Shown: positions 7,280 through 63,391, counted from the first letter of the stretch. The stretch is 64,000 nt of DNA from an uncultured Gammaproteobacteria bacterium (GCA_964583685.1 CAZOVJ010000001.1:4033-68032), one strand, 5' to 3'. Notes: generated by a model from the letters alone, not told the origin. Program-made: numbers and translations.

Positions 7280-8413
7280 TTGGCATCAAAAAAGAAACCC
7301 TCTAAAAAAACTTCAAAACTTAAACCAACAACAATGAGAGAGTTGTTGGCAAAAACAGGTTACAAAGTTAAAAGATTTGTTCCCGGGGAAAAAATAGATG
7401 CAAAGTTTATAAAACTTAACGGAAAATCGGCATCTTTCGATATAGGTGGGAAGAGCGAAGGAGTTGTATCCGATATTTATTTTGAAGAAGTGAGGGATTT
7501 TATCAAATCTTTAAAATCAGGAGATATTCTTAAGGCCACAGTTATTGATCCAGAGGCGGCTGACGGAAGTATCCTTCTTTCTTTACGACAAATTGCTTTG
7601 GAAAGTAGTTGGGAAAAACTGCAAAGAGCAAAAAAAAATAATTTGCCTGTTTCAGTCATGGTTAAAAGTCTAAGTAGAGCAGGTCTTCTGGTTGATGCCT
7701 ATTCTATAGACGGTTTTATTCCCATTTCCCAGCTTGGCAAAAAAGCAGGGCTAAACTCAGAAAAGCTTATTGGCAAGCATCTACAAACAAAGATTATTGA
7801 TATGGATAGAGGTAGGAATAAACTGGTCCTTTCGGAAAAGGCGGTCTCAGAAGCGAACGAGCTGGGTTATTTACAAAAGGCAGCCAAGAAAATTATCGAG
7901 GGAGAGATTTACGACGGAGTGGTGACAGCAGTTAAGGATTTCGGCGCATTTGTGGAAGTTTCGGTGGAGATAAATAAGAGGAGGGTTAAGATGGAAGGAT
8001 TGGTACATATTTCTGAGCTTGCCTGGGAAAAAGTAGATAATCCAGCTGATGTTGTTTCTATAGGTGACAAGGTGAAGGTAAAAGCTATCGGCACAAGGGA
8101 TGGCAGGCCCGCCTCGGCCGGCAGACTGGCCTTTTCCATTAGGCAAGCCCAGAAGGATCCCTGGGAAGAAGTGGATAAAAAATATAAAGTGGACACAAAA
8201 GCAAAAGGAAAGATTGTTCGCAGGTCTGATTTTGGCATTTTTGTTCAACTTGAACCCGGAATTGAAGGCTTGGTCCACATGACTAAGATTCCTCCGGGAA
8301 CAAAACTTTCTCTTGGCCAGGAGCTTGATTGTTATGTTGAGGAGATAAATGCTAAAGAACATAGAATTTCATTGGGTCTGGTCCTTACGACAAAGCCAGT
8401 GGGATATAAATAA
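7280..8413 (+). CDS. rpsA: 30S ribosomal protein S1 (short four-S1-domain form), TTG start
   Basis: Repeated S1 OB-fold signatures (GEIYDGVVTAVKDFGAFVEV, EGLVHISELAWEKV, GKIVRRSDFGIFVQL...GLVHMTK). 377 aa. Contains a GC-rich palindromic insert at 8101-8133. Confidence 0.7.
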   Translation: MASKKKPSKKTSKLKPTTMRELLAKTGYKVKRFVPGEKIDAKFIKLNGKSASFDIGGKSEGVVSDIYFEEVRDFIKSLKSGDILKATVIDPEAADGSILLSLRQIALESSWEKLQRAKKNNLPVSVMVKSLSRAGLLVDAYSIDGFIPISQLGKKAGLNSEKLIGKHLQTKIIDMDRGRNKLVLSEKAVSEANELGYLQKAAKKIIEGEIYDGVVTAVKDFGAFVEVSVEINKRRVKMEGLVHISELAWEKVDNPADVVSIGDKVKVKAIGTRDGRPASAGRLAFSIRQAQKDPWEEVDKKYKVDTKAKGKIVRRSDFGIFVQLEPGIEGLVHMTKIPPGTKLSLGQELDCYVEEINAKEHRISLGLVLTTKPVGYK

Positions 8414-9726
8414 TGACCAAGTCGTCCTTTGTTTGTCAGCAGTGTGGTTATTCCCAAGTAGGTTGGGCAGGAAGATGCCCGAATTGCGGCACTTGGGGAA
8501 GTCTAATAGAAACAGTTGTTCCAAAATCAAAAATCTCCCGCGGGGGGAAAAAACGAATTTCTAAAACCAGCAAGCCGATTTCGTTGGCTTCGATTCCTTC
8601 TAAAAAGACTTCACGGATTTTAACTAAAATTTCCGAGCTCGACCGGGTTTTGGGCGGTGGCCTGGTTGCCGGACAAGTAGTTCTCTTAGCCGGAGAGCCG
8701 GGAATTGGAAAGTCAACCCTTCTTTTAGAGGTGGCTAGTATGTTGGGCGACACCCTTTATGTCGCTGCTGAGGAATCAGTTGTTCAAATTAAATTAAGGG
8801 CGGACAGGCTCGGTATCAAGAAGAAAAGTATCAGGATATTGGAAGAGACGAATGTTGATGAGGTAATAGATCAAGTCTTGAATTTCAAGGAGCAGGGACT
8901 GAAGTTAATAGTTATCGATAGTATTCAGGCAATGAATACTTCTGATTTATCAGGCATGGCCGGCTCTGTCGGCCAGGTGCGGGAATGTAGTTATCGTCTT
9001 GTCCGTATGGCCAAGGCTGATAACATTCCTCTCTTTCTTGTTGGTCATGTTACCAAGGAGGGGACGGTGGCCGGACCGGCTGTTCTCAGCCACATTGTTG
9101 ACAGCGTTCTCTGGTTTGAGGGAGATAAAAATCTTACCTTCCGGCTTCTTAGAGCGGTGAAGAATCGTTTTGGTCCAACTGATGAGGTTGGCATCTTTAA
9201 TATGGAAGCCAAAGGCCTGATTCCTATTGAAGATACCAAAAATCTCTTTTTGAGCAAAAAAAAGAGGATGCTCTCAGGCTCGGTGGTAACTTCTGTCATG
9301 GAAGGTACTAGGCCGCTCTTGGTGGAAATCCAATCCCTGGTAGTACCCACAAAAATGGCCTTTCCCAGACGGGTTGTCAGGGGTCTTGATCCTAAAAGAG
9401 TAGAGCTGATTTTAGCTGTTCTCCAAAGAAGAATTGGCCTGGCTTTTCAGGATTATGATGTTTTTGTTAATGCTGTTGGAGGAATAGTGATTAAGGAACC
9501 GGCCGTTGATTTGGCGGTTGCCCTGTCTGTTGTTTCTTCTCTTTTTGATAAACCCTTGGCCAATAATCTTTTGGCAATTGGAGAAATAGGTTTACTGGGA
9601 GAGATTAGAGAGGTAATTGCCGAGGAGAAAAGGCTGAAAGAGGCAAAAAGATTGGGTTTTAGAACCTTTGTTACTCAGAAAGAAGTTAAATATCTAAATC
9701 AGGCAATAAAGAAATACCTAAAATAA
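8413..9726 (+). CDS. radA: DNA repair protein RadA/Sms
   Basis: N-terminal C4 zinc finger (CQQCGY...CPNCGTWGS), Walker A GEPGIGKSTLLL, Lon-like C-terminal domain. Start overlaps the rpsA stop (TAATG). Confidence 0.9.
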   Translation: MTKSSFVCQQCGYSQVGWAGRCPNCGTWGSLIETVVPKSKISRGGKKRISKTSKPISLASIPSKKTSRILTKISELDRVLGGGLVAGQVVLLAGEPGIGKSTLLLEVASMLGDTLYVAAEESVVQIKLRADRLGIKKKSIRILEETNVDEVIDQVLNFKEQGLKLIVIDSIQAMNTSDLSGMAGSVGQVRECSYRLVRMAKADNIPLFLVGHVTKEGTVAGPAVLSHIVDSVLWFEGDKNLTFRLLRAVKNRFGPTDEVGIFNMEAKGLIPIEDTKNLFLSKKKRMLSGSVVTSVMEGTRPLLVEIQSLVVPTKMAFPRRVVRGLDPKRVELILAVLQRRIGLAFQDYDVFVNAVGGIVIKEPAVDLAVALSVVSSLFDKPLANNLLAIGEIGLLGEIREVIAEEKRLKEAKRLGFRTFVTQKEVKYLNQAIKKYLK

Positions 9727-10206
9727 TTAATCTTTCCTCATTTTATCCACAATTTTTAATTTCCCCGAAGATTTAGCGAAGAACAAAGCTAATTTTGACA
9801 ATAGGTAAACTATAGGTAGGGAGATTTTGATAACCTTTCCTATTATGGGATTGACAGGATTGACAGAGGGTGTTAGAGTATTTGTAGTACATTTAAAAAC
9901 AAAAAGAGCATCGCTATCGTTGGTCTATTCTGAAAAAATCGGAACCTTACCACGAATAGAAATGCTCTTTAAATGCAATCTATCTTGTGTTTCCCGCAGA
10001 GCGGGAGAGGACAGGCAACAAGATAAATCAAATTCAGACTAATCGTAAAGAGAGTCTTTTGTCAAGCCCTAGTTTGCCGCGTATGACGCGGTTTACCACG
10101 TCTGACGTGGTTTGATTCGGCCCCGAAAGGGACGGGTGGTGTGTAGGGCAGGCGCACTACCCGCTCCTTTTGGAGCCGAATTTTAATTACCATTGGGCTA
10201 GTTTTT

Positions 10207-11191: not shown

Positions 11192-11526
11192 TTCACCTTA
11201 AAAAATAGGGAGCAGATCGAGGAAACGGAAAATTTGTAAGCAGAAAAATGTCCGTGAGAGGTTCACGAATAGTTTTCTGCTTGTAAACGGCAGAAGCTTT
11301 ACTAGGTTCAAGAAACTTGAAAGCCAAGTTTCTTTTGGGTTTAGCGAAGAGCACATTTAAAGAGGCAAGGGAGCACCTTTGGGTGCGACCGCAAGGCATG
11401 GCATCTCCTGATTGGGCAGCCTGTTTTGGATATGATTTTTGCTTGATTTTGAATTTGTTGTTATTAAAAATTGTGTCCAATACGGGCTTGCCCAATCAAG
11501 AAAGCTAGTTTTTAGGAGGTGCGCCA

Positions 11527-16156: not shown

Positions 16157-16801
16157 ATGAAAGACATCTATCCGGAGATTCTTGGTAAAAACCAAGCCCT
16201 TATTCTTCCCAGGTTTAGCTTTCTAAAAAAGAAAGGGTTTTATTTGGCTGGAGGTACTGCCCTAGCTCTTCAAGTTGGACATCGTAGTTCGGTTGATTTT
16301 GACTTTTATAATCCTCAAAAATTCGATATAAAAGAGCTCTATGATGAAATTGAAAAAGTCTTTGGGAAAAAGACCCAGAAAACTCTCCAAGAAAAAGATA
16401 CTCTTTTTTGTACAATCAATGACAAAGTAGGGGTATCTTTCTTTTACTACGACTATTCTCTAATTAAAAAACCCAGAGTAGTGAAGGGTATTCTTTTAGC
16501 TAGCATCGAAGATATCGCTGCCATGAAGCTCATTGCTATTAGCCAAAGGCCGCTTAAAAGAGATTATATTGACATCTTCTTTATTTTAAAAATTTTTAGT
16601 CTTAAAAAAATATTCTCTTTTGCTAAGAAAAAATATCCCAGGTTTAATGAATATTATGTTTTGCGAGCCTTAACTTATTTTGAAGACATAAAAGACGAAG
16701 GGGAGAGAGCGATTAAAATCTTGGCCAAAAATTTCTCCTGGGAAAAGGCGAAAAAGAAAATTTTTGAGGAAGTCAAGGATTATCAAATGGTGATGATATA
16801 G
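16157..16801 (+). CDS. nucleotidyltransferase of the AbiEii/AbiGii (DUF1814) toxin family
   Basis: Motif FYLAGGTALALQVGHRSSVDFDFY matches the GGTAL...R.S.D.D signature of AbiEii. Confidence 0.6.
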   Translation: MKDIYPEILGKNQALILPRFSFLKKKGFYLAGGTALALQVGHRSSVDFDFYNPQKFDIKELYDEIEKVFGKKTQKTLQEKDTLFCTINDKVGVSFFYYDYSLIKKPRVVKGILLASIEDIAAMKLIAISQRPLKRDYIDIFFILKIFSLKKIFSFAKKKYPRFNEYYVLRALTYFEDIKDEGERAIKILAKNFSWEKAKKKIFEEVKDYQMVMI

Positions 16802-16804
16802 GCT

Positions 16805-16832
16805 AATCCCGCTCAGCGGGATTTTTCTTTTT
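16805..16832 (+). terminator. rho-independent terminator (cccgc-tcag-gcggg hairpin plus T-run)
   Basis: aatcccgctcagcgggatttttctttt lies directly after the stop of the 16157-16801 gene. Confidence 0.7.
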
Positions 16833-19385: not shown

Positions 19386-19408
19386 TTTACCAGTCTTTGT
19401 TACAAGCT

Positions 19409-19437
19409 AATCCCGCTCAGCGGGATTTTTCTTTTTT
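19409..19437 (+). terminator. rho-independent terminator (same hairpin family as 16805)
   Basis: aatcccgctcagcgggatttttcttttttagg. Confidence 0.7.
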
Positions 19438-49858: not shown

Positions 49859-50368
49859 TTATTGGATACGAGATGCTGAATTTTCAGCTTCTAGCCAAGA
49901 AATGAATTGTTTTATATCAGAAAGATAGTTTTTGATAGTATTGTGAGATACTTTTTCGCTTTGGAGATGGTTTTTGAATGAGCCAGCAATTGACTGTGAG
50001 AAGTCTTTGGAGGGTAGAGAGATCTCTCCCGAAGAGGGAATGTTGCTAATTTCTTCGGTAAAGTTGTAGTCTATGGTCTGAATTCCCTGAAGAAAACGAC
50101 CGAAATGACGGAGAGTGGACAACCGACGATTAATGGTTTTGTTGGCAATCTTATTTTGGACAAGAAAATTTTTATATTCCTGAGCCAGCTTTTTGGACAG
50201 ATAGGGAAGGATGTCATCTAAGCCTTCGGCCAAGGCGCCCCAATTACGGGCCTTGAGTAAAATCCAGCCGGTAAAATGGGAAAGGTCTGAACGATAAAAC
50301 TTTAAGCTTTTTGGAGAAATGCCAATTTCTTCTGTGAGATAGGTTTCAAATTTCTTTTTGATGGGCAT
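49859..50368 (-). CDS. protein made of tandem phage-integrase N-terminal SAM-like (core-binding) domains, no catalytic domain
   Basis: Two repeats of the motif seen at the N-terminus of the giant gene: ...SPKSLKFYRSDLSHFTGWI...TINRRLSTLRHFGRFL and ...VSHNTIKNYLSDIKQFISWL. 169 aa. Confidence 0.55.
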   Translation of the reverse strand: MPIKKKFETYLTEEIGISPKSLKFYRSDLSHFTGWILLKARNWGALAEGLDDILPYLSKKLAQEYKNFLVQNKIANKTINRRLSTLRHFGRFLQGIQTIDYNFTEEISNIPSSGEISLPSKDFSQSIAGSFKNHLQSEKVSHNTIKNYLSDIKQFISWLEAENSASRIQ

Positions 50369-51572: not shown

Positions 51573-54161
51573 ATGACAGCCAAGGTGGCTGAAAAATACA
51601 ATCATCAAAAGATAGAAAAGAAGTGGCAAAAAAAATGGGAGAAGACGGGCTTATACACTCCGGATATCCCTTCGGCCAAAAGGCCTTTTTATAATCTTTG
51701 GATGTTTCCTTATCCCTCGGCTGAAGGTCTCCATGCTGGTCATGTCTTTGCCTCGACTGGCTCAGATGTTTACGGCCGCTTTATGCGCATGCGGGGCAAG
51801 GATGTTTTTCAGCCGATTGGCTATGATTCTTTTGGTATCCATTCCGAGAATTTTGCCCTAAAAATTGGTGAGCATCCTCAAAAAATGCTGAGCCGAACCA
51901 TCAAAAACTATGAACGACAATTGATGAGTTTGGGGCATGGCTATGATTGGAACCGAACACTGATGACTTCTGATATAGATTATTATAGATGGACACAGTG
52001 GCTTTTTATCCAGATGTTCAAAGCAGGCCTGGCTTATCGGGCCAAGGCAAGGGTTAATTGGTGTCCTTCTTGCAAGACGGTTTTGGCTGACGAGCAGGTG
52101 ATTAGCGGCAGATGCGAAAGATGTTCAGCTGAGGTTGAGCACAAAGAATTGGAGCAATGGTTTTTCAAGATTACCAGCTATGCTGACAGATTATTGGCCA
52201 ACTTAGAAAAGATTGACTGGCCGGAAAAGATAAAGACCATTCAGAAAAACTGGATCGGCCGGTCAAAGGGAATGATAATAAAATTCAAAAATCAAAATTC
52301 AAAAATCTCCCGCAGAGCGGGATCCCGTCTCGCGGGAAAAATTTCCGTTTTTACTACCCGGCCGGATACCCTTTTTGGTACGACTTTTTTGGTTCTGTCG
52401 CCAGAGAAGGCGAAAAAATTTCTCAGCCTTGTTCCCTTGAGCAAAAAAGCTACTATATCAAAATATATCGAAAGAACACTGAGGAGAACAAAACAAGAAA
52501 GAAAATTGGAGGAAAAAGAGAGAATTGGGCTGGATATGGGCTTTAAGGCAATTAATCCGGCAAACCAAGAGAGGGTGCCGGTTTTTGTGGCTGATTATGT
52601 TTTAATGGAGCATGGTACGGGGGCAGTCATGGGCGTGCCCGGACATGATCATCGGGATTGGGATTTTGCCAAAAAATACAATTTACCGATTATTGAAGTG
52701 GTTGGCGGTGGACAGATGCAAAAGGCTGCTTATACCGGGCCGGGCAAGCTGATTAATTCTGATGAATGGAACGGCTGGCAAATGCCTCAGCAGTTGGACA
52801 AGGTTTTAGATTATCTGGAAAAAAAGAAATGGGCTAAAAAAACCACTACTTATCATCTTCGCGATTGGTTGATTTCCCGGCAGCGCTATTGGGGTCCGCC
52901 CATTCCCATGATTTATTGTCCAAAGTGTGCCAAAAAAGGGAAAGCTAGCTCTATGTCCGGATGGTATCCGGTGGAGGAGAGCGAGTTGCCAGTAGAATTG
53001 CCTTATTATAGGGACTATCAACCCAAGGGTGGAGGAAGGGGGCCGTTGGCCGACCATCCGGAGTTTTATCAAACAAAATGCCCGGTTTGTGGGGCTGAGG
53101 CTCAACGGGAGACTGATGTTTCCGATACTTTTCTTGATTCTTCCTGGTATTTTTTGCGCTATCCTTCGACTCGCTCCGCTCGCTCAGGACAGGTCCCTTT
53201 TGATCCAAAGATTACCAAGAAGTGGTTACCGGTTAATCTTTATTTTGGCGGAGCTGAGCATGCTGTCCTCCATCTTTTGTATGCCCGCTTTATTAGTCTA
53301 GCCCTTGATGACATGGGCTATTTGAAGTTTTCCTCCAGAGTGAGAGGAGAGCCTTTTCCTTGGTTTTATAGCCATGGCTTGATGATTAAGGACGGAGCCA
53401 AGATGAGCAAGTCAAGAGGCAATGTGGTTAATCCCGATGAGTATATTGAGAAATTTGGGGCCGATACATTGCGTCTTTACCTGATATTTATGGGGCCGAT
53501 GGATGGAACTCCGGATTTTAGGGATACGGGCATTGAGGGAATGCATCGTTTCTTAATGCGGGTTTGGGGATTATTTCAAAGTCAAGGGGCTGAGCAACTC
53601 GAGAAGGAGTTGCTGGTCAAAATGCATCAAACTATAAAGAAAGTGACGGAAGACATTGAGAAATTTCATTATAATACGGCCATTTCCAGCATTATGGAGT
53701 ATGTCAACGTGCTCCGCACTCAAACTCAAAACTCAAATCTCAAAACTCAAAACAATAGGGAATGGTCTGAATGTCTGCGGGTATTGGTCCTTTTGCTCGC
53801 CCCTTTTGCTCCCCATCTGGCGGAGGAGATATGGCAAAATCTCTCCCGCGGAGCGGGGTCCCTGCCTGGGCAGACAGGACAAAAATCTTTTAAATCCATC
53901 CATCTTGAGGCCTGGCCAAAATATAATTCCAAATTGATAAAAGAGACTTTGGTGAGAATTGTTGTACAGGTCAATGACCGGGTTCGCAGTCAGATAGATG
54001 TTGATAGCCTGAGGTTGAAGGATGAGACCTATGTTGAGGAAATGGCTAAAAAGGATGAAAAGGCAAGGAATTGGCTGAAGTCCAGGAAAATTAGAAGGGT
54101 TGTTTATGTGCCTGGTCGGCTAATCAATTTTCTCGTCACTCCTGGCCATGGAAAAAATTGA
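51573..54161 (+). CDS. leuS: leucyl-tRNA synthetase, carrying two in-frame repeat-element insertions
   Basis: Class I HIGH (PYPSAEGLHAGHV) and KMSKS motifs. NWIGRS...TTRPDT block. 862 aa. Inserts at 52281-52345 and 53718-53880. Confidence 0.95.
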   Translation: MTAKVAEKYNHQKIEKKWQKKWEKTGLYTPDIPSAKRPFYNLWMFPYPSAEGLHAGHVFASTGSDVYGRFMRMRGKDVFQPIGYDSFGIHSENFALKIGEHPQKMLSRTIKNYERQLMSLGHGYDWNRTLMTSDIDYYRWTQWLFIQMFKAGLAYRAKARVNWCPSCKTVLADEQVISGRCERCSAEVEHKELEQWFFKITSYADRLLANLEKIDWPEKIKTIQKNWIGRSKGMIIKFKNQNSKISRRAGSRLAGKISVFTTRPDTLFGTTFLVLSPEKAKKFLSLVPLSKKATISKYIERTLRRTKQERKLEEKERIGLDMGFKAINPANQERVPVFVADYVLMEHGTGAVMGVPGHDHRDWDFAKKYNLPIIEVVGGGQMQKAAYTGPGKLINSDEWNGWQMPQQLDKVLDYLEKKKWAKKTTTYHLRDWLISRQRYWGPPIPMIYCPKCAKKGKASSMSGWYPVEESELPVELPYYRDYQPKGGGRGPLADHPEFYQTKCPVCGAEAQRETDVSDTFLDSSWYFLRYPSTRSARSGQVPFDPKITKKWLPVNLYFGGAEHAVLHLLYARFISLALDDMGYLKFSSRVRGEPFPWFYSHGLMIKDGAKMSKSRGNVVNPDEYIEKFGADTLRLYLIFMGPMDGTPDFRDTGIEGMHRFLMRVWGLFQSQGAEQLEKELLVKMHQTIKKVTEDIEKFHYNTAISSIMEYVNVLRTQTQNSNLKTQNNREWSECLRVLVLLLAPFAPHLAEEIWQNLSRGAGSLPGQTGQKSFKSIHLEAWPKYNSKLIKETLVRIVVQVNDRVRSQIDVDSLRLKDETYVEEMAKKDEKARNWLKSRKIRRVVYVPGRLINFLVTPGHGKN
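52281..52345 (+). repeat. family-1 repeat element (AAATTCAAAAATC... + cccgcagagcggg-atc-ccgtctcgcggg) inserted in frame in leuS
   Basis: Encodes KNQNSKISRRAGSRLAGKIS between the conserved NWIGRS and TTRPDT blocks. Same palindrome in reverse orientation at 30621-30648. Confidence 0.7.
53718..53880 (+). repeat. family-1 composite insert in leuS (CAAAACTCAAA tracts + cccgcggagcgggg palindrome)
   Basis: Encodes QTQNSNLKTQNN ... NLSRGAGSLPGQTGQ in regions that are short in other LeuRS. Confidence 0.55.
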
Positions 54162-54771
54162 TTGGCAAGAGCTGCTTTTCAAATTTCGTTGGCAGATTGT
54201 CTTTCTTCTTTTGGGTCTTATCTTGGTTGCTGGGGGCTTGATTTTAGCCAAAAGCGATATTTTCTCTCCTAAACCTCAGATAGAGATTCTAGAGAGCGTT
54301 TCAGAAGGAGAGGGGGCAAATAAGCATGTTATTGTCGAAATAGCCGGTAGTGTGGAAAAGCCTGGGGTTTATAAATTGCCGGCTAGTTCGCGAATTGAAG
54401 ATTTACTGATTGCTTGTGGTGGAGTTTCAGCTGACGCGGACCGTGAATGGATGGAAAAAACTCTGAATCGAGCCGCCAAGTTGGTTGATGGCCAAAAGAT
54501 TTTTATTCCCGCCTTCGCCAAGGCTTCGGCGGGTGGGCCAAGGGAAACTCAAAACAACGGAACCGCGGTGGCGGGGAGTTATATCTCCGAGTTGATAAAC
54601 ATCAATACGGCCAGTCAAAAAGAACTGGAAACACTGTGGGGAATTGGCCCTGTTACAGCCCAAAACATCATTGAACACAGACCTTACTCATCTGTCGAAG
54701 AACTGCTTTCCAAAAAGATTTTAAAGACAAATGTTTATGAAAGGACCAAAGATAAGCTATCAGTCTATTAA
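54148..54771 (+). CDS. comEA: competence protein ComEA (TM anchor, SLBB domain, C-terminal HhH DNA-binding)
   Basis: NINTASQKELETLWGIGPVTAQNIIEHRP HhH signature. Contains a family-2 repeat encoding PAFAKASAGGPR. Confidence 0.8.
   Translation: MEKIDWQELLFKFRWQIVFLLLGLILVAGGLILAKSDIFSPKPQIEILESVSEGEGANKHVIVEIAGSVEKPGVYKLPASSRIEDLLIACGGVSADADREWMEKTLNRAAKLVDGQKIFIPAFAKASAGGPRETQNNGTAVAGSYISELININTASQKELETLWGIGPVTAQNIIEHRPYSSVEELLSKKILKTNVYERTKDKLSVY
54508..54538 (+). repeat. family-2 GC-rich palindromic repeat (cccgccttcgccaaggcttcggcgggtgggcc) in comEA
   Basis: Near-identical copies at 56367-56400, 58717-58764 and 62725-62788. Diverged copies at 8101-8133, 59091-59124, 61731-61775 and 62915-62962. 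Confidence 0.75.
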
Positions 54772-54825
54772 AAAATCAAAATTACAAGTTAAAATTCAAA
54801 AATTTTAAGATTTTGCATTGTCATT

Positions 54826-55899
54826 TTGCATTTTCTTAAGATGAGATATTCGTTATGGTTCTTTTTAATTTTCCTGGTTGTTTTTCGCTTTTTAACAACC
54901 CGGCCGATTTATAAAAACGGCGATAAGGTACGGTTAAGAGGTCAGGTTTCTTCAGAACCAACAAGATATAGCCAGCAGCAAGGATTAAACCTAGCAGGCC
55001 TCAAAATTTATTTGCCGCTTTACCCGGAAATCAATTATGGAGACAGAATTGTTGTCAGGGGAGTGGTGGAAGATAGAGTTTTGAAAAATGCTCAGCTAAT
55101 CAGGTTTGAAGAAAGCAAGAGCCTTTTTTTTAAAGTGAGAAAAAAGCTGGTCGCATTTTATCAAAGCTCCCTAGCCGAGCCTCATTCGGCTTTGCTTGGA
55201 GGAGTGGTTTTGGGCACTAAAGCCAGTCTGCCTAAGGATTTTTGGCAGGCTTTGAAAAAGACCGGCACCGCTCATGTCGTTGTTGCTTCGGGAATGAATG
55301 TTACCTTGGTAGCCAATTTTTTAATTAGCCTGCTCATTTCATTTTTACCCCGAAAAAAAGCTATTCCAGTTGCTCTGTTGGGAATTTGGGCCTATTCTTT
55401 TGTTTCTGGTTTTGATGCTCCGATTATCAGGGCGGCCATCATGAGCTCTTTGGCCTTTAGTGGCCAGGCTCTGGGCAAGCTTTACCAAGCTTGGCGAGCT
55501 CTGTTTCTGTCAGCTGGGGTTATGCTTGTAGTTAAGCCGGATTGGCTCTTTGATTTGGGTTTTATCTTATCCTTTGCGGCCACGGCCTCACTGATGCTTT
55601 TTGGGAGTAAAATTTACCGTTTGATACAGTTTATGCCGGGAATATTCAGAGAGGGATTGGCAACCTCTCTGGCCGCCCAGATTGGAGTAGCGCCCTTACT
55701 TTATCTGAGCTTTGGCCAATTTAATCTTCTTACTCCTTTAATCAATGCCCTGGTTCTTTGGACAATTCCGATAATGACAGTCATTGGTTTTGTTGCTGGA
55801 CTGCTGGGCTTAATTGTGCCCTTTCTTGGTAGTTTGATATTGTTTTTGTGCTATCCTTTGACCAGCTGGTTTATAAGTATAGTTGGCTTGTTTGGTTAA
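54826..55899 (+). CDS. comEC: ComEC/Rec2 membrane channel (competence domain), N-terminal part of a split comEC
   Basis: Polytopic competence-domain segment. Stops 12 nt before the next ORF, which carries the MBL domain. Confidence 0.65.
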   Translation: MHFLKMRYSLWFFLIFLVVFRFLTTRPIYKNGDKVRLRGQVSSEPTRYSQQQGLNLAGLKIYLPLYPEINYGDRIVVRGVVEDRVLKNAQLIRFEESKSLFFKVRKKLVAFYQSSLAEPHSALLGGVVLGTKASLPKDFWQALKKTGTAHVVVASGMNVTLVANFLISLLISFLPRKKAIPVALLGIWAYSFVSGFDAPIIRAAIMSSLAFSGQALGKLYQAWRALFLSAGVMLVVKPDWLFDLGFILSFAATASLMLFGSKIYRLIQFMPGIFREGLATSLAAQIGVAPLLYLSFGQFNLLTPLINALVLWTIPIMTVIGFVAGLLGLIVPFLGSLILFLCYPLTSWFISIVGLFG

Positions 55900-55911
55900 C
55901 AAGGTTCTGAA

Positions 55912-56781
55912 ATGAAATCTCGCTGGAAATTTATTTTGGCAGGATTAGGCTTGTTTAGTCTTAGTCTCTGGCTGGCTGTTTTTACTCTTCCGGATAAAAA
56001 TCTCCATTTAATAGCCTGCGATGTGGGCCAGGGAGATGCGATTTTGTTAACCCTGGACTCAACTCAAATTTTGATTGATGGAGGACCGAATAACTCGGTT
56101 CTTGATTGTTTAGGAGAAAATATGCCTTTCTGGGACAGAAAAATAGAGTTGGTTGTCCTTTCTCACCCCCAGAAAGACCATTTTATGGGTTTAATAGATG
56201 TTTTTAAGCGATATAAAGTGGATACTGTACTGGCAAGCGGGCTTGATTCTAGCACTCAAGGATATCAAGTGCTAAAAAAGGAGGCAGGGGGTAGTGGGGC
56301 GAGAGTAGTTACTCCAGATATAGGTACGATTCTCAGGTTGGGTTTGATGGAGTTAGAGGTGGTCTGGCCCGCCTTCGCCAAGGCTTCGGCGGGCGGGCCC
56401 AGGGGTTTGGGAACATTTACTTCTAACCAAGACCCGAATGATTTTTCAATTGTTCTTAATTTAAAGCTGGTTGATTTTGATGCCTTGTTCACCGGTGATA
56501 TTGGTCCAAAGGTAACCCCCAAAATTCTTGAGACCGGTAGAATTAGGCATGTAAACTATCTCAAAGTGCCTCATCATGGCTCAAAAAATGGCCTGACAGA
56601 GGAATTACTAGAGCAAAGTAAACCGGAAATAGCCGTCATTTCTGTTGGCAAAAATCAGTGGGGCCACCCTCATCAAGAAGTGTTGGAGATGTTGGCCGAT
56701 TACGGGTTACGGGTTTTTCGGACGGATTTGGATGGAAATGTAGAGATCGTCACCGATGGACAAGATTGGTGGATACCCTAA
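55912..56781 (+). CDS. comEC: ComEC metallo-beta-lactamase domain (C-terminal part of split comEC)
   Basis: LSHPQKDHFMGL and VPHHGSKNG motifs. Contains a family-2 repeat encoding PAFAKASAGGPRG. Confidence 0.7.
   Translation: MKSRWKFILAGLGLFSLSLWLAVFTLPDKNLHLIACDVGQGDAILLTLDSTQILIDGGPNNSVLDCLGENMPFWDRKIELVVLSHPQKDHFMGLIDVFKRYKVDTVLASGLDSSTQGYQVLKKEAGGSGARVVTPDIGTILRLGLMELEVVWPAFAKASAGGPRGLGTFTSNQDPNDFSIVLNLKLVDFDALFTGDIGPKVTPKILETGRIRHVNYLKVPHHGSKNGLTEELLEQSKPEIAVISVGKNQWGHPHQEVLEMLADYGLRVFRTDLDGNVEIVTDGQDWWIP
56367..56400 (+). repeat. family-2 repeat in comEC MBL-domain ORF
   Basis: gcccgccttcgccaaggcttcggcgggcgggccc. Confidence 0.75.
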
Positions 56782-57800: not shown

Positions 57801-59693
57801 GTGAAGAGAGATATTATTGTTGATGCTCTAAAAGCTGCCTCTGGAGAAAAAGAAATTAATCTTGAATTTCCCGAGAATCAGGCTCATGGAGATTATGCAA
57901 CTAATGTTGCATTGAAAATCAAAAATCAAAAATCAAAAATCAAAAGTACAAATCAAAGATTAAAACTAAAAGAATCCAGAAGTTCAAGAGAATTAGCGGA
58001 GGAAATAGCGGGCAAACTGCGAAAAGATAAGGATTTGCAGGGGATTGTTGCCAAGATAGAGGTGGCTGGGCCTGGTTTTATTAATTTCTTTTTGTCTAAA
58101 AAAGTTCTCATTGACAATCTTCAGACAGTGGTTGAGAAAGGAGAGAAATATGGCAGTTCCAATCTGGGTCAAGGCAAGACAGTGATTATTGATTATTCTT
58201 CACCAAATATTGCAAAGTATTTCGCCATAGGTCATTTACGCTCGACAATCATCGGCCAAGCGCTCTATAACATTTATGGTTTTCTTGGCTATAAGATGAT
58301 TGGCGAGAATCATTTGGGAGATTGGGGAACGCAATTTGGCATGCTTATTGCCCAGGTTGTTAGGAAAAACTTGGATATTGAGAAACTTAAAATTGCGGAC
58401 CTGGAAAGACTTTATGTTGAATTTAACCAAGCGGTTGAGAAAAGACCTGAGCTGGCTGAAAATGCAAGAGTTTGGTTTAAGAAGCTGGAGCAGGGTGACA
58501 AGGAAGCCCGAAAGATTTGGCAGGCCGCAGTTGAAATTTCTTCAAAAGAATTTAAGAGAATTTATAAACTGTTGGGGGTTGAAATTGAGAATTGGCATGG
58601 TGAAAGTTTTTATGAGAATAAGACCCAGGTAGTAATCAAGGAGGTTAGGGAAAAGGGCTTGTCCAAGAAAAGCCAGGAAGCTGAAATTATTGAATTTGAT
58701 CGCCCCGCAGTTGACGGGGCAGGCCCACCTTCGCCAAGGCTACGGCGGACAGGCCTGCCGGCAGTAATGTTGCTCAAGAGCGATGGAGCGACCACCTATT
58801 TTACTCGTGATTTGGCGGCCTTGAAATTTAGAATTAAGACCTGGAAGCCGGAGATTATTATCTATGAAGTTGGGGCAGACCAAAAGCTTCATTTTCAACA
58901 ACTATTTAGAATCGCGGATTTGTTGGGTTGGGTTAAGGGAAGAAAATTTGTTCATATTGCTCATGGTTTGATACGTTTTGAGCATGGCAAAATGTCCACC
59001 AGGCGGGGCCAGACAGTTAAATTAGAGAAGGTTCTGGTAGAAGCAATCCAAAGAGCGAGAAAAATCATTGAGGAATCAGGAACAGGCAGTGGCCTGCCTC
59101 GCCGAGTCAAGGCGGGCCTGTCGGAAAAAGAAAAGGAGAGAATTAGCAGGATGGTGGGTATCGGAGCAATTAAATATTTTGATTTGTCCCATCATTATTC
59201 TTCGGACATCATTTTTGATTGGGAAAAGCTTTTTGTTCTGACCGGAAATTCCGGGCCATATTTACAATACACCTGCGCTAGAACACAAAGTGTTCTAGCT
59301 AAAATCAAAAACCTGCCCGTCCGGCAGGCGGGTCAAAAATCAAAAATCAAAACTACAGATGAAAAATCAAATAATAAAAACAGTTTTGATGATTGGGATT
59401 TAGAAATTAACGACGAAGAATCTTTGCTTCTGAGGAGTTTAGGCCAATTTCCCGAAATAATCATTGATGTCGCCAAAAATTACTCACCCAACCTTTTATG
59501 CAACTATCTTTTTGAGCTGGCCCAAAAATATAATACCTTTTATGAGCGTCATCGGATCCTTAACGCTAAAGCAAAAAATAAAGAACAAAGTGCCCAGTTA
59601 AAAAAATTGAGAATCGCTATCACTATGGCTGTTAGCCAGGTTCTTAAAAACGGCCTAACTCTTCTGGGGATAGAGTCTCCGGAGAGAATGTAG
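57801..59693 (+). CDS. argS: arginyl-tRNA synthetase, GTG start, carrying four in-frame repeat insertions
   Basis: HIGH-region IGHLRSTIIG. C-terminal anticodon-binding DALYS-type domain. 630 aa. Inserts at 57915-57960, 58717-58764, 59091-59124 and 59301-59385. Confidence 0.9.
   Translation: MKRDIIVDALKAASGEKEINLEFPENQAHGDYATNVALKIKNQKSKIKSTNQRLKLKESRSSRELAEEIAGKLRKDKDLQGIVAKIEVAGPGFINFFLSKKVLIDNLQTVVEKGEKYGSSNLGQGKTVIIDYSSPNIAKYFAIGHLRSTIIGQALYNIYGFLGYKMIGENHLGDWGTQFGMLIAQVVRKNLDIEKLKIADLERLYVEFNQAVEKRPELAENARVWFKKLEQGDKEARKIWQAAVEISSKEFKRIYKLLGVEIENWHGESFYENKTQVVIKEVREKGLSKKSQEAEIIEFDRPAVDGAGPPSPRLRRTGLPAVMLLKSDGATTYFTRDLAALKFRIKTWKPEIIIYEVGADQKLHFQQLFRIADLLGWVKGRKFVHIAHGLIRFEHGKMSTRRGQTVKLEKVLVEAIQRARKIIEESGTGSGLPRRVKAGLSEKEKERISRMVGIGAIKYFDLSHHYSSDIIFDWEKLFVLTGNSGPYLQYTCARTQSVLAKIKNLPVRQAGQKSKIKTTDEKSNNKNSFDDWDLEINDEESLLLRSLGQFPEIIIDVAKNYSPNLLCNYLFELAQKYNTFYERHRILNAKAKNKEQSAQLKKLRIAITMAVSQVLKNGLTLLGIESPERM
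57915..57960 (+). repeat. family-1 A-rich hexamer tract (AAAATC x4...) in frame in argS
   Basis: Encodes KIKNQKSKIKSTNQ. Confidence 0.6.
59301..59385 (+). repeat. family-1 element (AAAATCAAAAA + cctgcccgtccggcaggcggg palindrome + AAAATC tracts) in frame in argS
   Basis: Encodes KIKNLPVRQAGQKSKIKTTDEKSNNKN. Confidence 0.6.
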
Positions 59694-59726: not shown

Positions 59727-61007
59727 ATGAAGCATAAATTGATAACTTTAGAGAATGATTTGCGGCTAATTGTTGCCCCAATTCCCAGTTTGGCCTCAGC
59801 CACCATTACTGTTTGGGTTGGTACTGGCTCAAGGTTTGAAGCTCCAAGAACCAGTGGACTTAGTCACTTTTTGGAGCACATGGTTTTCAAAGGCAGTCAA
59901 AAGAGGCCTTCGGCCAAGCTGATTGCCCAGGCCGTTGATGCGATTGGAGGAGAGTTTAATGCTGGTACAACCAAAGAATGGACCAATTTTTATATCAAAG
60001 TTCGCAATCAAAGGCTTGGACTAGCCTTTGATGTTCTTTCCGATATGGTCCTCAACCCTCTTTTGAAAAAGGAGGATATCGAACGGGAAAAGGGAGTTAT
60101 TGTTGAGGAAATCGCCATGTGTGAGGATACTCCGGCCATGAGAATTGGCCATGTTTTTGAACAAGTAATTTTTCAGGGAACTTCTTTGGCAAGAGATATT
60201 ATTGGTACGGCCAAGACAGTCAAGGGGATGAAGAGAGTGGATTTTCAACGATATAGAAAGAGATATTATTATCCTGAGAATATTGTTCTTACTGTATCCG
60301 GAGGCATTGTTGAAAAAGATGCGTTAAAACTGGCTAAAAAGTATTTTGGGGAAATTAAGCTCGGGGCTAAATCTCAAGTAGGAGAGACAGGCTTTCAGTC
60401 GAGCCAAAAAAAGCCGAGATTTAAACTTTATCCTAAGAAAAAGGAACAGGCCCATTTTATTTTGGGATTTTTGGCTAGTCCCAGGGGTCACAGGGATAGA
60501 TATATTGAGGCTGTGCTTGCCACTATTTTGGGAGGAGGAATGAGCTCACGGCTTTTTAGCGAGATTAGAGAGAAACGGGGATTGGCTTATGCTGTTAAGA
60601 CAGGCGTGGATTCATATCGGGATACCGGTTATCTGGCCACTTATGCAGGTGTTGACCCGAAAAGGATTGAGGAAGCGGTCAAGGTTATGCTTGAAGAGCA
60701 CTCTAAAATCTCCCGCTCCGCGGGAAAAAATCAGGAGTTAAAAAAAGCGAAGGAGTATGTTAAGGGACATTTGGCTCTAGTCCTGGAAGATACCAAGAGT
60801 GTGAATGAGTTTTTTGGTATAGAAGAGCTTCTTTTAGGCAAGACCAGGACTCCGGAGCAAGTTTTTCAAGCGATTGACAAGGTGACGATTCAAGATGTGA
60901 TTCGGGTAGCCAAAAAGTTATTCGTGCCTGAAAAGCTTAATCTGACGATAATCGGACCTTACAGGGCATCTGTCCGTTTTGAGCGGCTCATTTCCAGTTT
61001 CCATTGA
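59727..61007 (+). CDS. M16-family (pitrilysin-like) zinc peptidase
   Basis: Inverted zinc motif HFLEHMVFKGS near the N-terminus. 426 aa. Contains a family-1 insert at 60705-60733. Confidence 0.8.
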   Translation: MKHKLITLENDLRLIVAPIPSLASATITVWVGTGSRFEAPRTSGLSHFLEHMVFKGSQKRPSAKLIAQAVDAIGGEFNAGTTKEWTNFYIKVRNQRLGLAFDVLSDMVLNPLLKKEDIEREKGVIVEEIAMCEDTPAMRIGHVFEQVIFQGTSLARDIIGTAKTVKGMKRVDFQRYRKRYYYPENIVLTVSGGIVEKDALKLAKKYFGEIKLGAKSQVGETGFQSSQKKPRFKLYPKKKEQAHFILGFLASPRGHRDRYIEAVLATILGGGMSSRLFSEIREKRGLAYAVKTGVDSYRDTGYLATYAGVDPKRIEEAVKVMLEEHSKISRSAGKNQELKKAKEYVKGHLALVLEDTKSVNEFFGIEELLLGKTRTPEQVFQAIDKVTIQDVIRVAKKLFVPEKLNLTIIGPYRASVRFERLISSFH

Positions 61008-61132: not shown

Positions 61133-61171
61133 ATGTTTAGGCGGACCGCTCTACCATTGAGCCAGTCCCTG
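61133..61171 (-). other. tRNA 5'-half-like fragment (acceptor 5' strand, complete D-arm, anticodon-stem 5' arm) abutting tRNA-Pro
   Basis: Minus strand reads cagggac-tg-gctc-aatggta-gagc-g-gtccg-cctaaacat. The gtccg arm is complementary to the cggac in the 61011-61056 fragment. Confidence 0.45.
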
Positions 61172-61189
61172 TAATATTTATTTTAGCAA

Positions 61190-61957
61190 ATGTTAGGCAA
61201 ATTATATATAGTCGCCACTCCAATAGGGAATTTGGCAGATATTAGTCAAAGAGCCCTGGGAATTTTGCGAAAAGTTGATTTGATTTTGGCTGAGGATACC
61301 AGGGTTGTTAAAAAACTTTTGACAAATTACAAAATAAAAAAGACTCTTACTAGCTACCATCAGCATAGTTCTATATCTAAAAAGGAGGGTATTTTAACAC
61401 ATCTTGTCAAGGGCAAAATTTTGGCTTTGGTGAGCGATGCTGGAACCCCGGGGATTTCTGATCCAGGTAATGAATTAATAGATTTCTTACTGGCCAGAGA
61501 GCCGAAGATAAGGATTATCCCGATTCCAGGAGCTTCAGCCTTGACTGCCGCCTTGTCGGTTTGCGGATTTAATATATCAAAATATATATTTCTAGGTTTT
61601 CTAGTCAAAAGAAAACGCCAGAAACTTTTTCAATGGCTGGCTGAAAGTAAGTTAACCTTTGTCTTTTTCGATTCACCAAAGCGGATTTTGAAGACACTTG
61701 AGAGTTTGATAGAGTTTTTTGGTGGCCAGAGGCGGGCCCGCCTCGACTCGCCGTCTTCGGCGAGGCGGGTCTTTGTCGGCCGAGAGATGACCAAGATGCA
61801 CGAAACTTTATATCGGGGGAGTTTGGAAGAGGTAAAGAAGCAATTGGAGCAGGAGAAAAAGATTAGAGGGGAAATAGTGGTGGTGGTGGAAGGGGGTGCC
61901 CTCAGTAGGAATCGAACCTGCATCTCCCCTTTAGGAGAGGGGTGCTCTATCCGTTGA
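61190..61957 (+). CDS. rsmI: 16S rRNA 2'-O-ribose C1402 methyltransferase RsmI
   Basis: N-terminal LYIVATPIGNLADISQRALGILRKVDLILAEDTRVVKKLL tetrapyrrole-methylase-fold signature. 3' ~60 nt overlap the antisense tRNA-Arg. Contains a family-2 insert (RRARLDSPSSARRV). Confidence 0.8.
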   Translation: MLGKLYIVATPIGNLADISQRALGILRKVDLILAEDTRVVKKLLTNYKIKKTLTSYHQHSSISKKEGILTHLVKGKILALVSDAGTPGISDPGNELIDFLLAREPKIRIIPIPGASALTAALSVCGFNISKYIFLGFLVKRKRQKLFQWLAESKLTFVFFDSPKRILKTLESLIEFFGGQRRARLDSPSSARRVFVGREMTKMHETLYRGSLEEVKKQLEQEKKIRGEIVVVVEGGALSRNRTCISPLGEGCSIR

Positions 61958-61968
61958 GCTATGAGGGC
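61896..61968 (-). tRNA. tRNA-Arg (anticodon CCT)
   Basis: Minus strand reads gccctcaTAgctcaacggatagagcAccccTCTCCTAAaggggagatgcaggTTCGATTcctactgagggcA. Perfect acceptor stem, one T-stem mismatch. Confidence 0.75.
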
Positions 61969-62029
61969 CTGCCCGCCATGCTATGCAAGGCGTTGCGGGA
62001 GGACCTGCCTTGATATTATAACAGATTTC

Positions 62030-62057
62030 AAGAAAACCCCGAATTGAAAATTCGGGG
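62030..62057 (-). terminator. rho-independent terminator for minus-strand transcription from the 62144-63391 gene
   Basis: ccccgaattgaaaattcgggg hairpin followed on the minus strand by TTTTC. A second long imperfect inverted repeat lies at 62075-62126. Confidence 0.5.
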
Positions 62058-62143
62058 ATGAATTGAACCTGATATGTCATCCTCCTTTAGAGGAAACTCC
62101 GCACTTTTAGTGCGGAGAGGATGTCATAGCAAATTTCAGGTTT

Positions 62144-63391
62144 TTATTTCAGACTGAGGAAGTAAAGATTGGGTGGGGCTGAATTGGCTCCCAGATTGGT
62201 CAAAATTAGCAATTTTGAGCCGTTGGCAAAGGGGTAAGCATGGGGAGCAACATAAGAACCTGAATATATTGCTTGAAGATTGGTGGCGTCGTAATCTGAA
62301 ATCATAATCTTATCTTTTTTAGGAAGAATGAGGTGCCGGGAGGTTGGAAACCAATAAACAACCTGGTCAGCATCGCTAACCCCAAAATTGCGGTCTTCTT
62401 TGGTATCATAAACATATTTTTTACCTGGTTTTATATTTCTTTTTTGTTTTTGAGTAGAGGAACCGGGCAGAGGTTTAATGAGACCTTCAGGCAGGAAAGC
62501 ACTGGCCGAGGCAGTATAGAGGATTTTTTTTTCGTCTGGCGAAAACTGAATATTACTGGCTTTTCGCTTGAAGATATCTTCCAGTTCGTCGGGAAGTTTA
62601 GCTAGTTGGGCCTGGAGGCGCTTTTCTTTCTTTTTATTCCATTCTGACAAGATTTTGTCTACCTGATTAGTGATGTTTACCCTTTGATTTTGAGGAGTGA
62701 AGTCTCCAGTTTTCAGGAGGAAGACGCCCGCCTGCGCCAAGGCTTCGGCGGGCAGACCCAGCCTGTCGGCGGACAGGCCCGCCCCGGTGGTTAAAAGAAT
62801 TTCTCTGGAATCCGGAGACCATTCCCAGTTGGCTCCGGAGAGGTCGCCATCAGTTATTTGTCGCGGTTCTTTTCGAAAACCAATTGGCAAATCCACCAGT
62901 TCAGTAAGCCAGAGTCCCGCCTTATCGGCGGGCAGACCCAGCCTGTCGGCGGGCAGGCCCGCATTGCTATTAACAACTACAGCATAGGCAATTTTACTGA
63001 GATCCGGAGATATTTGAGGGTTGAACACGCCAGAGAAGGTTAAGGCCGAAAGGGAGGGTGCAGCTGGGAAAAGGACGACATCTATTTGGGTGACAATTTC
63101 CTTTTCAATTACCAATCTTTTTTGCCAGGGTAGGAAACCCTCTTTTTTGATGAGAACATCATAGGTTCTTGGAGAGAGAGAAATTGTATTGTTGGTAGCG
63201 GTTTTCAGTTCACCATTGATAAATACTTGGGCGCCGTTGGGATCAGAATTGGCAACCAAAAGCCCGTTTGGCATTAGACGGAAGGTGTTCGTGTCCAGTC
63301 TATAGCCCCGAACATAGAGTGAAGCGGCAATGGCCAAAGCAAGTATGATAAATAGGCTAAAGAAAAAAATTCCGACACGGACTTTGGTCAT
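62144..63391 (-). CDS. membrane-anchored PEGA-domain / beta-propeller-like hypothetical protein with two in-frame repeat insertions
   Basis: PEGA-like VFINGELKTATNNTISLSPRTYDVLIKKEGFLPWQ. Family-2 repeats at 62725-62788 and 62915-62962 encode AGLPADRLGLPADKAGL and GAGLSADRLGLPAEALAQAG. Confidence 0.55.
   Translation of the reverse strand: MTKVRVGIFFFSLFIILALAIAASLYVRGYRLDTNTFRLMPNGLLVANSDPNGAQVFINGELKTATNNTISLSPRTYDVLIKKEGFLPWQKRLVIEKEIVTQIDVVLFPAAPSLSALTFSGVFNPQISPDLSKIAYAVVVNSNAGLPADRLGLPADKAGLWLTELVDLPIGFRKEPRQITDGDLSGANWEWSPDSREILLTTGAGLSADRLGLPAEALAQAGVFLLKTGDFTPQNQRVNITNQVDKILSEWNKKKEKRLQAQLAKLPDELEDIFKRKASNIQFSPDEKKILYTASASAFLPEGLIKPLPGSSTQKQKRNIKPGKKYVYDTKEDRNFGVSDADQVVYWFPTSRHLILPKKDKIMISDYDATNLQAIYSGSYVAPHAYPFANGSKLLILTNLGANSAPPNLYFLSLK
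62725..62788 (-). repeat. family-2 repeat (double unit) inside the PEGA-protein gene
   Basis: cgcccgcctgcgccaaggcttcggcgggcagacccagcctgtcggcggacaggcccgcccc. Confidence 0.7.

Follow-up and report, generated by a model that had tools for sequence, protein, structure and literature searches.

We have found that a 64,000-nucleotide stretch of DNA deposited under an uncultured Gammaproteobacteria bacterium (GCA_964583685.1, CAZOVJ010000001.1:4033-68032; hereafter the window, with positions counted from its first letter) carries a superfamily of tiny GC-rich hairpins, most copies of which lie in frame inside genes. The superfamily has a stem (C)CCGCC/GGCGG(G), a varying loop and an unpaired CARG(CC) tail. 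To judge from sequence, the element is probably a hairpin repeat resembling the repetitive extragenic palindromes (REPs) and behaving like the Rickettsia palindromic elements (RPEs). Its best-defined subfamily, the core, reads Y-CCGCCTTCGCCAAGGCTWCGGCGG-R-CARG over about 30 nt and appears to belong to a multi-phylum bacterial repeat family that is mostly extragenic in its other hosts. The host itself seems to be a small-genome member of the Patescibacteria (candidate phyla radiation, CPR) of Microgenomates/Woesebacteria-like affinity, the housekeeping proteins of the window having their nearest relatives in Woesebacteria, Microgenomates and Patescibacteria. We give an even chance to the view that these REP-like, non-coding hairpins have spread as DNA into genes, probably via single-stranded DNA (ssDNA) at the replication fork.

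Eight intervals had been singled out in a sequence-only reading of the window. All eight contain the GC-rich sequences quoted for them, each within an open reading frame (ORF) that ORF and Pfam checks find intact with the frame kept, and the Pfam checks also upheld the names given to the repeat-bearing genes. In a window of about 43% GC, with GC skew positive throughout, the repeats form islands of at least 75% GC. A covariance model (R1), built from 146 copies that all come from other organisms, identifies four core copies at E = 1e-8 to 5e-10 (54501-54542, 56361-56402, 58717-58758 and 62720-62761) and a loop-deleted fifth at E = 0.01 (62909-62941). All five, at 54.5, 56.4, 58.7, 62.7 and 62.9 kb, are on the + strand. 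The copy in comEA (gene 54148-54771; copy 54501-54542, R1 E = 1.1e-8) contains the exact 24-nt core, lies in the linker that joins SLBB to HHH_3, and begins with a native Pro codon, CCC. The comEC copy (56361-56402, E = 4.5e-10) lies in the Lactamase_B half of a gene that occupies two ORFs (54826-55899 and 55912-56781). It is 95% identical to the comEA copy over 37 nt and likewise begins on a native CCC Pro codon, and both are read as PAFAKASAGGP, the identical peptide originally noticed. The catalytic domain of ArgRS (gene 57801-59693) has a composite 51-nt insert on the + strand, which we call site 1 (58702-58764, E = 2.7e-9), made up of a hairpin CCCCGcagttgaCGGGG and the core (58717-58758) nested within the palindrome GGCAGGCC/GGCCTGCC, and translated as ..GAGPPSPRLRRTGLPA. 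Two inserts are found in a PEGA-domain protein encoded on the minus strand (62144-63391). The first (62720-62788, 51 nt, + strand and so antisense to the gene, E = 2.1e-9, read as GAGLSADRLGLPAEALAQ) joins the core to a further hairpin, hairpin B (GCCTGTC-GGCG-GACAGGC). The second (62909-62962, + strand, E = 0.01, read as AGLPADRLGLPADKAG) joins a loop-deleted core to hairpin B and shares 97% identity over 38 nt with 62745-62782. The peptide LPADRLGLPA, said to occur twice in this protein, occurs once, the other copy reading LSADRLGLPA.

The remaining copies are more diverse. R1 misses those at 8101 and 59091 and finds that at 61731 only at E about 1, so that the proposed homogeneous family is a looser superfamily of which the five core copies are the part that matches R1. 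The non-core copies (8101, 59091, 61731 and 42364) have the CCCGCC/GGCGGG stem, a CAGGCC(CGCC) sub-motif and the hairpin-plus-tail layout, with differing loops and no common termini. In rpsA (7280-8413) an 18-nt insert on the + strand (8102-8124), encoding RPASAG at the third S1 domain's beta-turn, contains an exact CAGGCCCGCC and has GGCAGGCCCGCC in common with other copies, and is not a core member. Site 2 of argS (59085-59124, minus strand) is an insert of ~30 nt with a stem variant, CCCGCC-TTGACTC-GGCGAGG-CAGGCC, read as SGLPRRVKAG. The insert in rsmI (gene 61190-61957; insert 61729-61769, strand not assigned) is a 33-nt near-perfect palindrome with the stem CCCGCCTC/GAGGCGGG and the inner hairpin CTCGCCG-TCTT-CGGCGAG. 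The peptides predicted for ArgRS, including GAGPPSPRLRRTGLPA, and for RsmI are as had been described. Two copies in genes are additional to the original list: a GC island at 53839-53878 (+ strand) in leuS (51573-54161), which holds a GC-rich two-hairpin insert read as SRGAGSLPGQ, and another at 42364-42400 (+ strand), a related palindrome CCCGCC-TGCCGGCGAGGCAGG-CCCGCC with an exact CAGGCCCGCC and a weak R1 match (E about 7) in a giant minus-strand ORF (41950-49731). The listed copies themselves lie in six genes, not in at least seven. An intergenic relative is present just upstream of tRNA-Arg(CCT) (61963-62006, minus strand, CCCGC-18 nt-GCGGGCAGGCCC, R1 E = 0.25) and contains GGCAGGCC. Nine of ten window copies are in ORFs, in line with a coding density of 81%. 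Translation bears out the use of several frames and both orientations, three frames or orientations being used in the window. The inserts would be translated as short, disordered segments rich in Ala, Gly, Pro and Arg, an example of a peptide spanning an insert junction being ...EFDRPAVDGAGPPSPR....

This accumulation is far from random. The 24-nt core CCNCCTKCGCCAAGGCTWCGGCGG occurs four times in the window with up to 3 mismatches against an expectation of 0.00, and CAGGCCCGCC occurs ten times with up to 1 mismatch against an expectation of 2.2, a number reached in 0 of 100 shuffles. All ten of these matches are inside candidate copies, and the GC-rich 8-mers most over-represented in the window map without exception to repeat sites. 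The clustering near housekeeping genes is also real, the five core copies falling within 8.4 kb of the 64-kb window (P about 0.0015). It is next to impossible that the copies are products of assembly, binning or chimerism. Repeats do disrupt short-read assemblies, and a Logan contig (L001) that equals the window over 5,275 nt, five copies included, begins inside the core at 58726 in a typical repeat-induced contig break. Nevertheless, the NCBI source, Logan and Joint Genome Institute (JGI) assemblies are independent and agree base for base across the copies, with the JGI contig L158 differing from the window at 1 of 6,928 nt (99.99% identity). Furthermore, the repeat-bearing ORFs remain intact, and the core is present in complete isolate genomes such as those of Bradyrhizobium and Bdellovibrio. 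Positions 1-44 of L158 (public contig Ga0309839_1015620) are Nextera adapter sequence, TCGTCGGCAGCGTCAGATGTGTATAAGAGACAG.

Comparison with syntenic loci from six relatives and with protein homologs identifies lineage-specific insertions at 6 of the 8 listed sites. The RPASAG segment of rpsA, at the D-G-K turn of the S1 domain, aligns with a 6-aa gap in 13/13 orthologs. Site 1 of argS corresponds to a 17-aa gap in most of 24 orthologs, and site 2 to a gap of ~10 aa in most of the same 24 and in E. coli ArgRS (4OBY). The rsmI insert matches an 11-aa gap in the relatives L122 and L123 and in E. coli RsmI (PDB 5HW4), and the two PEGA inserts match two gaps of 17 aa in L122. The added leuS copy (53839-53878) likewise faces a gap of 10 + 2 aa in 3 orthologs. 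The claim that all the segments are insertions does not extend to comEA and comEC, where the orthologs carry unrelated sequence that is just as long or longer. The comEA copy occupies a variable linker with no net length gain relative to 5 orthologs, and the comEC copy is in a loop that is 4-8 aa shorter than in the orthologs and so represents no net insertion. From these alignments the two copies look like replacements, or like insertions accompanied by deletion. No copies are present in 87 kb of syntenic relatives, the closest of which, L122, has zero in 21.7 kb.

The window ArgRS is 630 aa long compared with about 560 aa in relatives, and this 70-aa excess comes purely from repeat inserts. 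In an AlphaFold2 model of the enzyme (mean predicted local distance difference test score, pLDDT, 80.6) four of the five coil segments with pLDDT < 50 are the four inserts (residues 52-57, 302-315 at site 1, 428-437 at site 2, and 506-527), while the rest of the enzyme folds confidently. The fifth such segment, residues 399-403, has no insert. The suggestion that the inserted peptides sit in loops is therefore upheld for ArgRS. The window also has a second repeat type, in which a low-complexity, A-rich tract AAAATCAAAAATC... adjoins a single TCCCGCNNNGCGGGA hairpin or a pair of them. It is in frame in argS (57905-57979 and 59309-59379) and leuS (52278-52341), where it is read as KNQKSKIK-like segments, and is intergenic at 30617-30688, 54762-54811, 16794-16832, 19398-19436 and 60711-60733. 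Relatives have independent A/T-rich inserts at the LeuRS and ArgRS sites of this repeat.

The palindromic character of the GC-rich copies is moderate. DNA folds have stems of 5-9 bp, in agreement with the description of the repeats as palindromes, but their z scores against composition-matched shuffles span only +0.7 to -2.3, the best fold of the rsmI insert having z = -2.25. The core hairpin has a 6-bp stem (YCCGCC/GGCGGR) and a 14-nt loop. Hairpin B is the core 3' tail CGGCGGACAGGC preceded by its own reverse complement. This second half-unit is private to this genome, and a metagenome scan for it gave 3 chance-like matches (one GC-rich gene), a result uninformative on copy number. The junctions, measured with insert lengths taken from the protein gaps, have direct repeats of variable length (3, 5, 5, 6, 7 and 8 nt) that resemble the elements' own ends or internal motifs. 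In rsmI an 8-nt repeat GAGGCGGG surrounds exactly 33 nt, with one of its copies encoding a conserved Arg-Arg. PEGA has a 7-nt repeat GCCCGCC at a spacing of 51 nt as well as the 5-nt CCCGC, rpsA has the 5-nt GGCAG, the argS core has the 6-nt CAGGCC within the palindrome GGCAGGCC|TGCC, and argS site 2 has a 3-nt repeat. In random window sequence the probability of a direct repeat of at least 7 nt is about 0.005-0.008.

The element is not, as had been supposed, particular to this genome. In a scan using one genome per species the exact 24-nt core is found at at least 120 genome loci in a broad range of phyla. The matches listed include Acidobacteriota, Alphaproteobacteria (among them cultured Bradyrhizobium), Verrucomicrobiota (among them Cerasicoccus arenae), Bacteroidota, Chloroflexota, Planctomycetota, Elusimicrobia, Armatimonadota, Actinomycetota, Bdellovibrio (a complete genome), Omnitrophota, Sumerlaeota, Marinimicrobia and several Patescibacteria lineages. 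A further 31 viral contigs in IMG/VR carry the exact core, and 72,556 plasmids yielded only four partial matches and no obvious vector. The sequences flanking the core are unrelated between loci and, among the matches listed, conservation drops steeply beyond Y(-1) and R-C-A-R-G (+1 to +5). In the same matches the closing pair at -1/+1 covaries (T-A 69, C-G 51, A-T 4, G-C 3, T-G 8, C-A 7, other 4), and in a diverged copy at locus L163 the stem is CCTCC/GGAGG, a compensated change. The same 8-kb loci hold some 20 more diverged copies, or ~1 per 34 kb near seed matches. Acidobacteriota and Alphaproteobacteria loci contain inverted doublets of the core with a partner, CCGCCGWAGCTTTAGCGNAGGCGG. 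In five Bradyrhizobium loci (L053, L073, L090, L093 and L103) the core is nested in a CGTC-tagged REP-like palindrome, CGTCATTGCGAGCG..., and in the Omnitrophota locus L042 each half of the core has undergone its own tandem amplification, giving [CCGCCTTTGCCAAGGCTT]n and [CGGCGGACAAGT]n.

Outside the window the core favors non-coding DNA, with 40% of the matches listed outside ORFs as against about 12% expected (ORFs cover 88% of those loci), and some copies adjoin tRNA or 6S RNA genes. In other CPR genomes it is nevertheless in frame in genes for an ABC-F ATPase, S1, LeuRS (two copies), a GT4 glycosyltransferase and PriA, with readings that include ASFAKASAG, PAEALAKAG, SAFAKASAD, ARRSLGEGG and PPKPWRRRG. 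Where listed matches fall in ORFs of at least 200 aa, 28 are on the same strand as the ORF and 29 on the opposite strand, and all six frames are represented. This equal use of strands and frames indicates that there is no selection at the protein level. Relative to GC skew the listed matches are biased, 84 being on the G-skewed strand and 53 on the other (p = 0.01), and the five core copies of the window are all on the positively skewed + strand even though two of them are in a minus-strand gene. Rfam has no family over the window copies at E <= 10, and at gathering score none covers the motif in 18 loci taken across phyla. A full-text literature search with the core in either orientation returned no paper, and a search on CPR and palindromes returned nothing relevant. 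Neither the core nor the peptides it encodes appear in Di Nocera 2013 (PMC3733652; text and supplements) or in the text of Nunvar 2010. Flanking inverted repeats that would make the core the tip of a longer hairpin amount to no general rule (6% vs 2% for matches of at least 8 nt). The reverse strand of the core presumably shares a 12-mer, TGGCGAAGGCGG, with 16S rRNA. We take this match to be coincidental and do not favor an rRNA origin, there being no core copy in the 23S or 5S genes of the window.

We propose that copies spread as DNA within the CPR genome and land inside genes. Since CPR genomes are nearly without intergenic space, the copies now visible would be the survivors that kept the frame in tolerant loops. 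Copying would most likely proceed through ssDNA at the replication fork, where a short GC-rich match between the target and an end of the element would seed the event, after which either the template is switched or a strand bearing the repeat anneals. This route is favored by the variable junction repeats, the clustering, the skew-linked orientation and the lack of any transposase in what was searched: Pfam finds none among the window ORFs, and tblastn found no match to IS200-like genes in the ~1.3 Mb of fetched loci, a weak test with an IS200 TnpA query. We rate a fixed-end, cut-and-paste transposase as the less probable route. The original idea of a selfish, RPE-like family thus appears broadly right, with mobility as its inferred part. 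Several observations nonetheless weigh against copying at the fork. Across phyla the core is sharply bounded, as one would expect of a dedicated nuclease or transposase more than of imprecise template switching, and the invariance of the 14-nt loop across phyla suggests sequence-specific recognition. The orientation bias is modest, and GC skew measured on 8-kb pieces tracks replication direction only noisily. The GC-rich self-similarity of the element may inflate the junction repeats, for which ordinary window sequence served as the control. Copy number and enzyme content are seen for 64 kb of the genome only. Finally, no empty-site versus filled-site polymorphism between strains was found, the sole close strain (99.99% identical) carrying every copy. 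An extension of the fork-copying scheme, possible but doubtful in our estimation, is that the ~30-nt hairpin is a previously undescribed, ultra-small and pan-bacterial selfish DNA without an enzyme of its own, crossing phyla on environmental or viral DNA, propagated by annealing or template switching at forks, and forced into essential genes in CPR bacteria that import DNA through ComEA/ComEC.

A dedicated HUH-type enzyme is a serious rival, albeit an unlikely one. Here a single-copy HUH tyrosine transposase of the REP/RAYT (REP-associated tyrosine transposase) or IS200/IS605 type, encoded elsewhere in the genome, would recognize the hairpin by its conserved loop or tail, cut it out and reinsert it as ssDNA at the lagging strand. 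Sharp ends and an invariant loop would follow naturally from such an enzyme, as would a hairpin with an unpaired tail, the inverted doublets with CCGCCGWAGCTTTAGCGNAGGCGG in Acidobacteriota and Alphaproteobacteria, and an orientation biased relative to GC skew, and REPs are documented within small palindromes and within genes (PMC3733652). This explanation is difficult to reconcile with the absence of a terminal GTAG/CGTC tag (GTAG/GAAG sits inside the loop), with window junction repeats that vary from 3 to 8 nt, and with the failure to find a Y1 transposase in the window or, by the weak test, in the ~1.3 Mb of fetched loci. Moreover, bioRxiv 10.1101/2022.05.22.493013 describes REP-RAYT pairs as lineage-specific, with vertical inheritance, whereas here one 24-mer is found in many phyla. 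We regard as distinctly unlikely the local de novo creation and extension of hairpins by template switching onto the complementary or nascent strand, under which the family resemblance would reflect shared GC-rich seeds. It suits the non-core copies (rsmI, rpsA, argS site 2 and PEGA hairpin B) best: the rsmI insert opens with CCCGCCTC, the exact reverse complement of the preceding 8 nt GAGGCGGG, and closes with those 8 nt again in direct orientation, and hairpin B, private to this genome, consists of the reverse complement of the core tail CGGCGGACAGGC plus that tail. Template switching can make perfect hairpins in one step (PMC8794818), and the tandem amplification of core halves in L042 is of a similar kind. 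However, it leaves unexplained both the identical 24-30-nt cores in unrelated phyla and the 95% identity over 37 nt between the comEA and comEC copies, and no reverse-complement source lies beside the core copies. Very unlikely, lastly, is that the hairpins are selected modules (mRNA stabilizers, pause or attenuation sites, protein-binding sites) or useful linker peptides. The covarying stem-closing pair and the conserved loop would suit such a role, as would the frequent position of the motif beside tRNA or 6S RNA genes and downstream of ORFs in other phyla, and REPs are reported to affect mRNA stability (PMC3733652). Yet the motif occurs on both strands and in all six frames of host genes, the hairpin is not followed by a T-run, there is no Rfam match, and relatives manage without the inserts. 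In addition, closing-pair mismatches of the T-G and C-A types are equally frequent (8 vs 7), which argues against an RNA read from one strand.

It is useful to set the window element beside known systems. Rickettsia palindromic elements, reportedly described by Ogata et al. in 2000 and 2002, are likewise palindromic in-frame inserts in housekeeping genes of a reduced genome, tolerated through their location away from the functional core and read in several frames. RPE-1 is about 100-150 bp and Rickettsia-specific, and RPE-4 and RPE-6 are CGTC-tagged REPs. The window inserts differ from RPEs in length (18-64 bp), in their composition of about 75-80% GC in a 43% GC genome, in the cross-phylum occurrence of the core, and apparently in sequence. 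RPEs are mentioned in PMC3733652 and PMC1779305. In-frame palindromes were originally taken to be known mainly from Rickettsia and a few other cases, but in-frame REPs are documented well beyond this, with examples from Opitutus terrae, Rickettsia conorii and Thauera, among others, and with tRNA-synthetase genes among their sites (PMC3733652), so that the behavior is neither new nor restricted to Rickettsia. The GTAG/CGTC REPs of that study resemble the window element in being imperfect palindromes of 20-40 bp, rich in GC, whose stems span 5-9 bp and whose tails are short and unpaired. Those REPs are mostly extragenic, as the core appears to be in other phyla, and like the window element they can be in frame in genes, tRNA synthetases among them, in single or double copies per gene. 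Both also insert into small pre-existing palindromes, form inverted dimers and occur in several phyla. Unlike these REPs, the window element has a CARG tail and consensus flanks Y...R-CARG, with GTAG/GAAG present only in the loop on the reverse strand, and it combines a 14-nt loop that is invariant across phyla with a CPR host and no tyrosine transposase seen. Its core sequence is also kept across far more distant hosts than in REP-RAYT systems, described as lineage-specific.

Mitochondrial hairpin elements, whose analogues include yeast mitochondrial GC clusters and 'byps', offer a further comparison. GC clusters and hairpin elements of mitochondria share with the window element the lack of an encoded transposase and repeated independent invasions, and the repetitive hairpin elements (RHE) of sponges (PMC2800124) and the coding palindromes of Nematomorpha (PMC6649704) are similarly GC-rich hairpins that invade compact, AT-richer genomes, coding regions included. 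They differ in being organellar, in having other sequences and, in some cases, in needing translational bypass. The window inserts are stop-free and in frame, and nothing therefore suggests bypass. Short-patch illegitimate recombination (SPDIR) is said to have been described by Harms et al. in 2016. Along with template-switch hairpins (PMC8794818) it shares with the scheme proposed for the window copies enzyme-independent fork mechanisms and microhomology-seeded, reverse-complement or ectopic patches of tens of bases, and both processes can replace sequence besides inserting it. They differ in having been described as mutational mechanisms and not as the spread of a defined repeat family across phyla. 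The mitochondrial GC clusters and hairpin elements (PMC2800124, PMC6649704) and template-switch hairpins (PMC8794818) are the nearest mechanistic counterparts. Miniature inverted-repeat transposable elements (Correia/NEMIS, Nezha; PMC10969869) are also small non-autonomous repeats that are sometimes in frame in genes, but they are 70-300 bp long with terminal inverted repeats and fixed-length target duplications, whereas the window elements, at 18-64 bp, have no common termini and have variable junction repeats of 3-8 nt.

Insertion recurs at the same places in different lineages. Microgenomates lineages have differing short inserts at shared positions of ArgRS and LeuRS. At ArgRS site 2, where the window has a stem variant, homologs P0007, P0023 and P0075 have a diverged core relative that retains GCCAAGGCT as well as the tail GGGGCAGGCC and translates to R(R/Q/H)G(Y/S/F)AGQA, and P0022 and P0024 have a different insert family. 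Among 240 ArgRS and S1 homologs one related case of a core-encoded peptide was found, P0023, and other lineages in this set have other GC-rich families. These shared positions are best read as frequent insertion filtered by the tolerance of loops. Other GC-rich in-frame insert families are found in the relatives at L125:3621-3652 and 11401-11433 and at L123:11270-11344, one being CCTGCCGGCAGGCAGG, read as LPAGRQG, and another being read as PRLVRLSSPSSIRSGQAG. With these families in relatives, colonization of genes by short repeats appears to be general in the CPR clade.

Other features of the window are also of note. Its RNA genes comprise 23S rRNA, 5S rRNA and five tRNAs. The 23S gene (2464-6059) is 3.6 kb long as against 2.9 kb, with two LAGLIDADG homing-endonuclease ORFs (4852-5307 and 6102-6614), which points to introns or insertions within the gene, as is typical of CPR bacteria. 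The division of ComEC into a Competence-domain ORF and an adjoining Lactamase_B-domain ORF (54826-56781) is identical in 6/6 syntenic relatives, and is thus a conserved arrangement and not repeat damage. The rsmI ORF overruns the ortholog stop by ~20 codons (61895-61968), into the opposite-strand tRNA-Arg(CCT) gene, and RsmI of L122 has a similar tRNA-derived extension at its N-terminus. Two giant ORFs (33020-41272 and 41950-49731, encoding 2750 and 2593 aa), one with Laminin_G_3 domains and the other with 300-nt internal repeats of 97-98% identity, adjoin a 169-aa protein (49859-50368) that has, of the domains of a phage integrase, only the SAM-like N-terminal one. L122 shows this pairing too.

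The in-gene behavior of such repeats is already known, and it is the cross-phylum identity of the core that deserves follow-up. A near-identical 24-nt core across phyla and viral contigs is explained neither by vertical inheritance nor by a known transposase, and it provides a concrete, searchable handle on the spread of the smallest bacterial repeats. Such inserts also inflate apparent protein divergence, disrupt short-read assemblies and seed spurious ORFs. For CPR bacteria, core enzymes (ArgRS, LeuRS, S1, RsmI and ComEC) have been remodeled by tiny repeats, with different lineages hit at matching loop positions. If the element is truly pan-bacterial and enzyme-free, it would account for recurrent insertion hot spots and new disordered loops in the core enzymes of these organisms.

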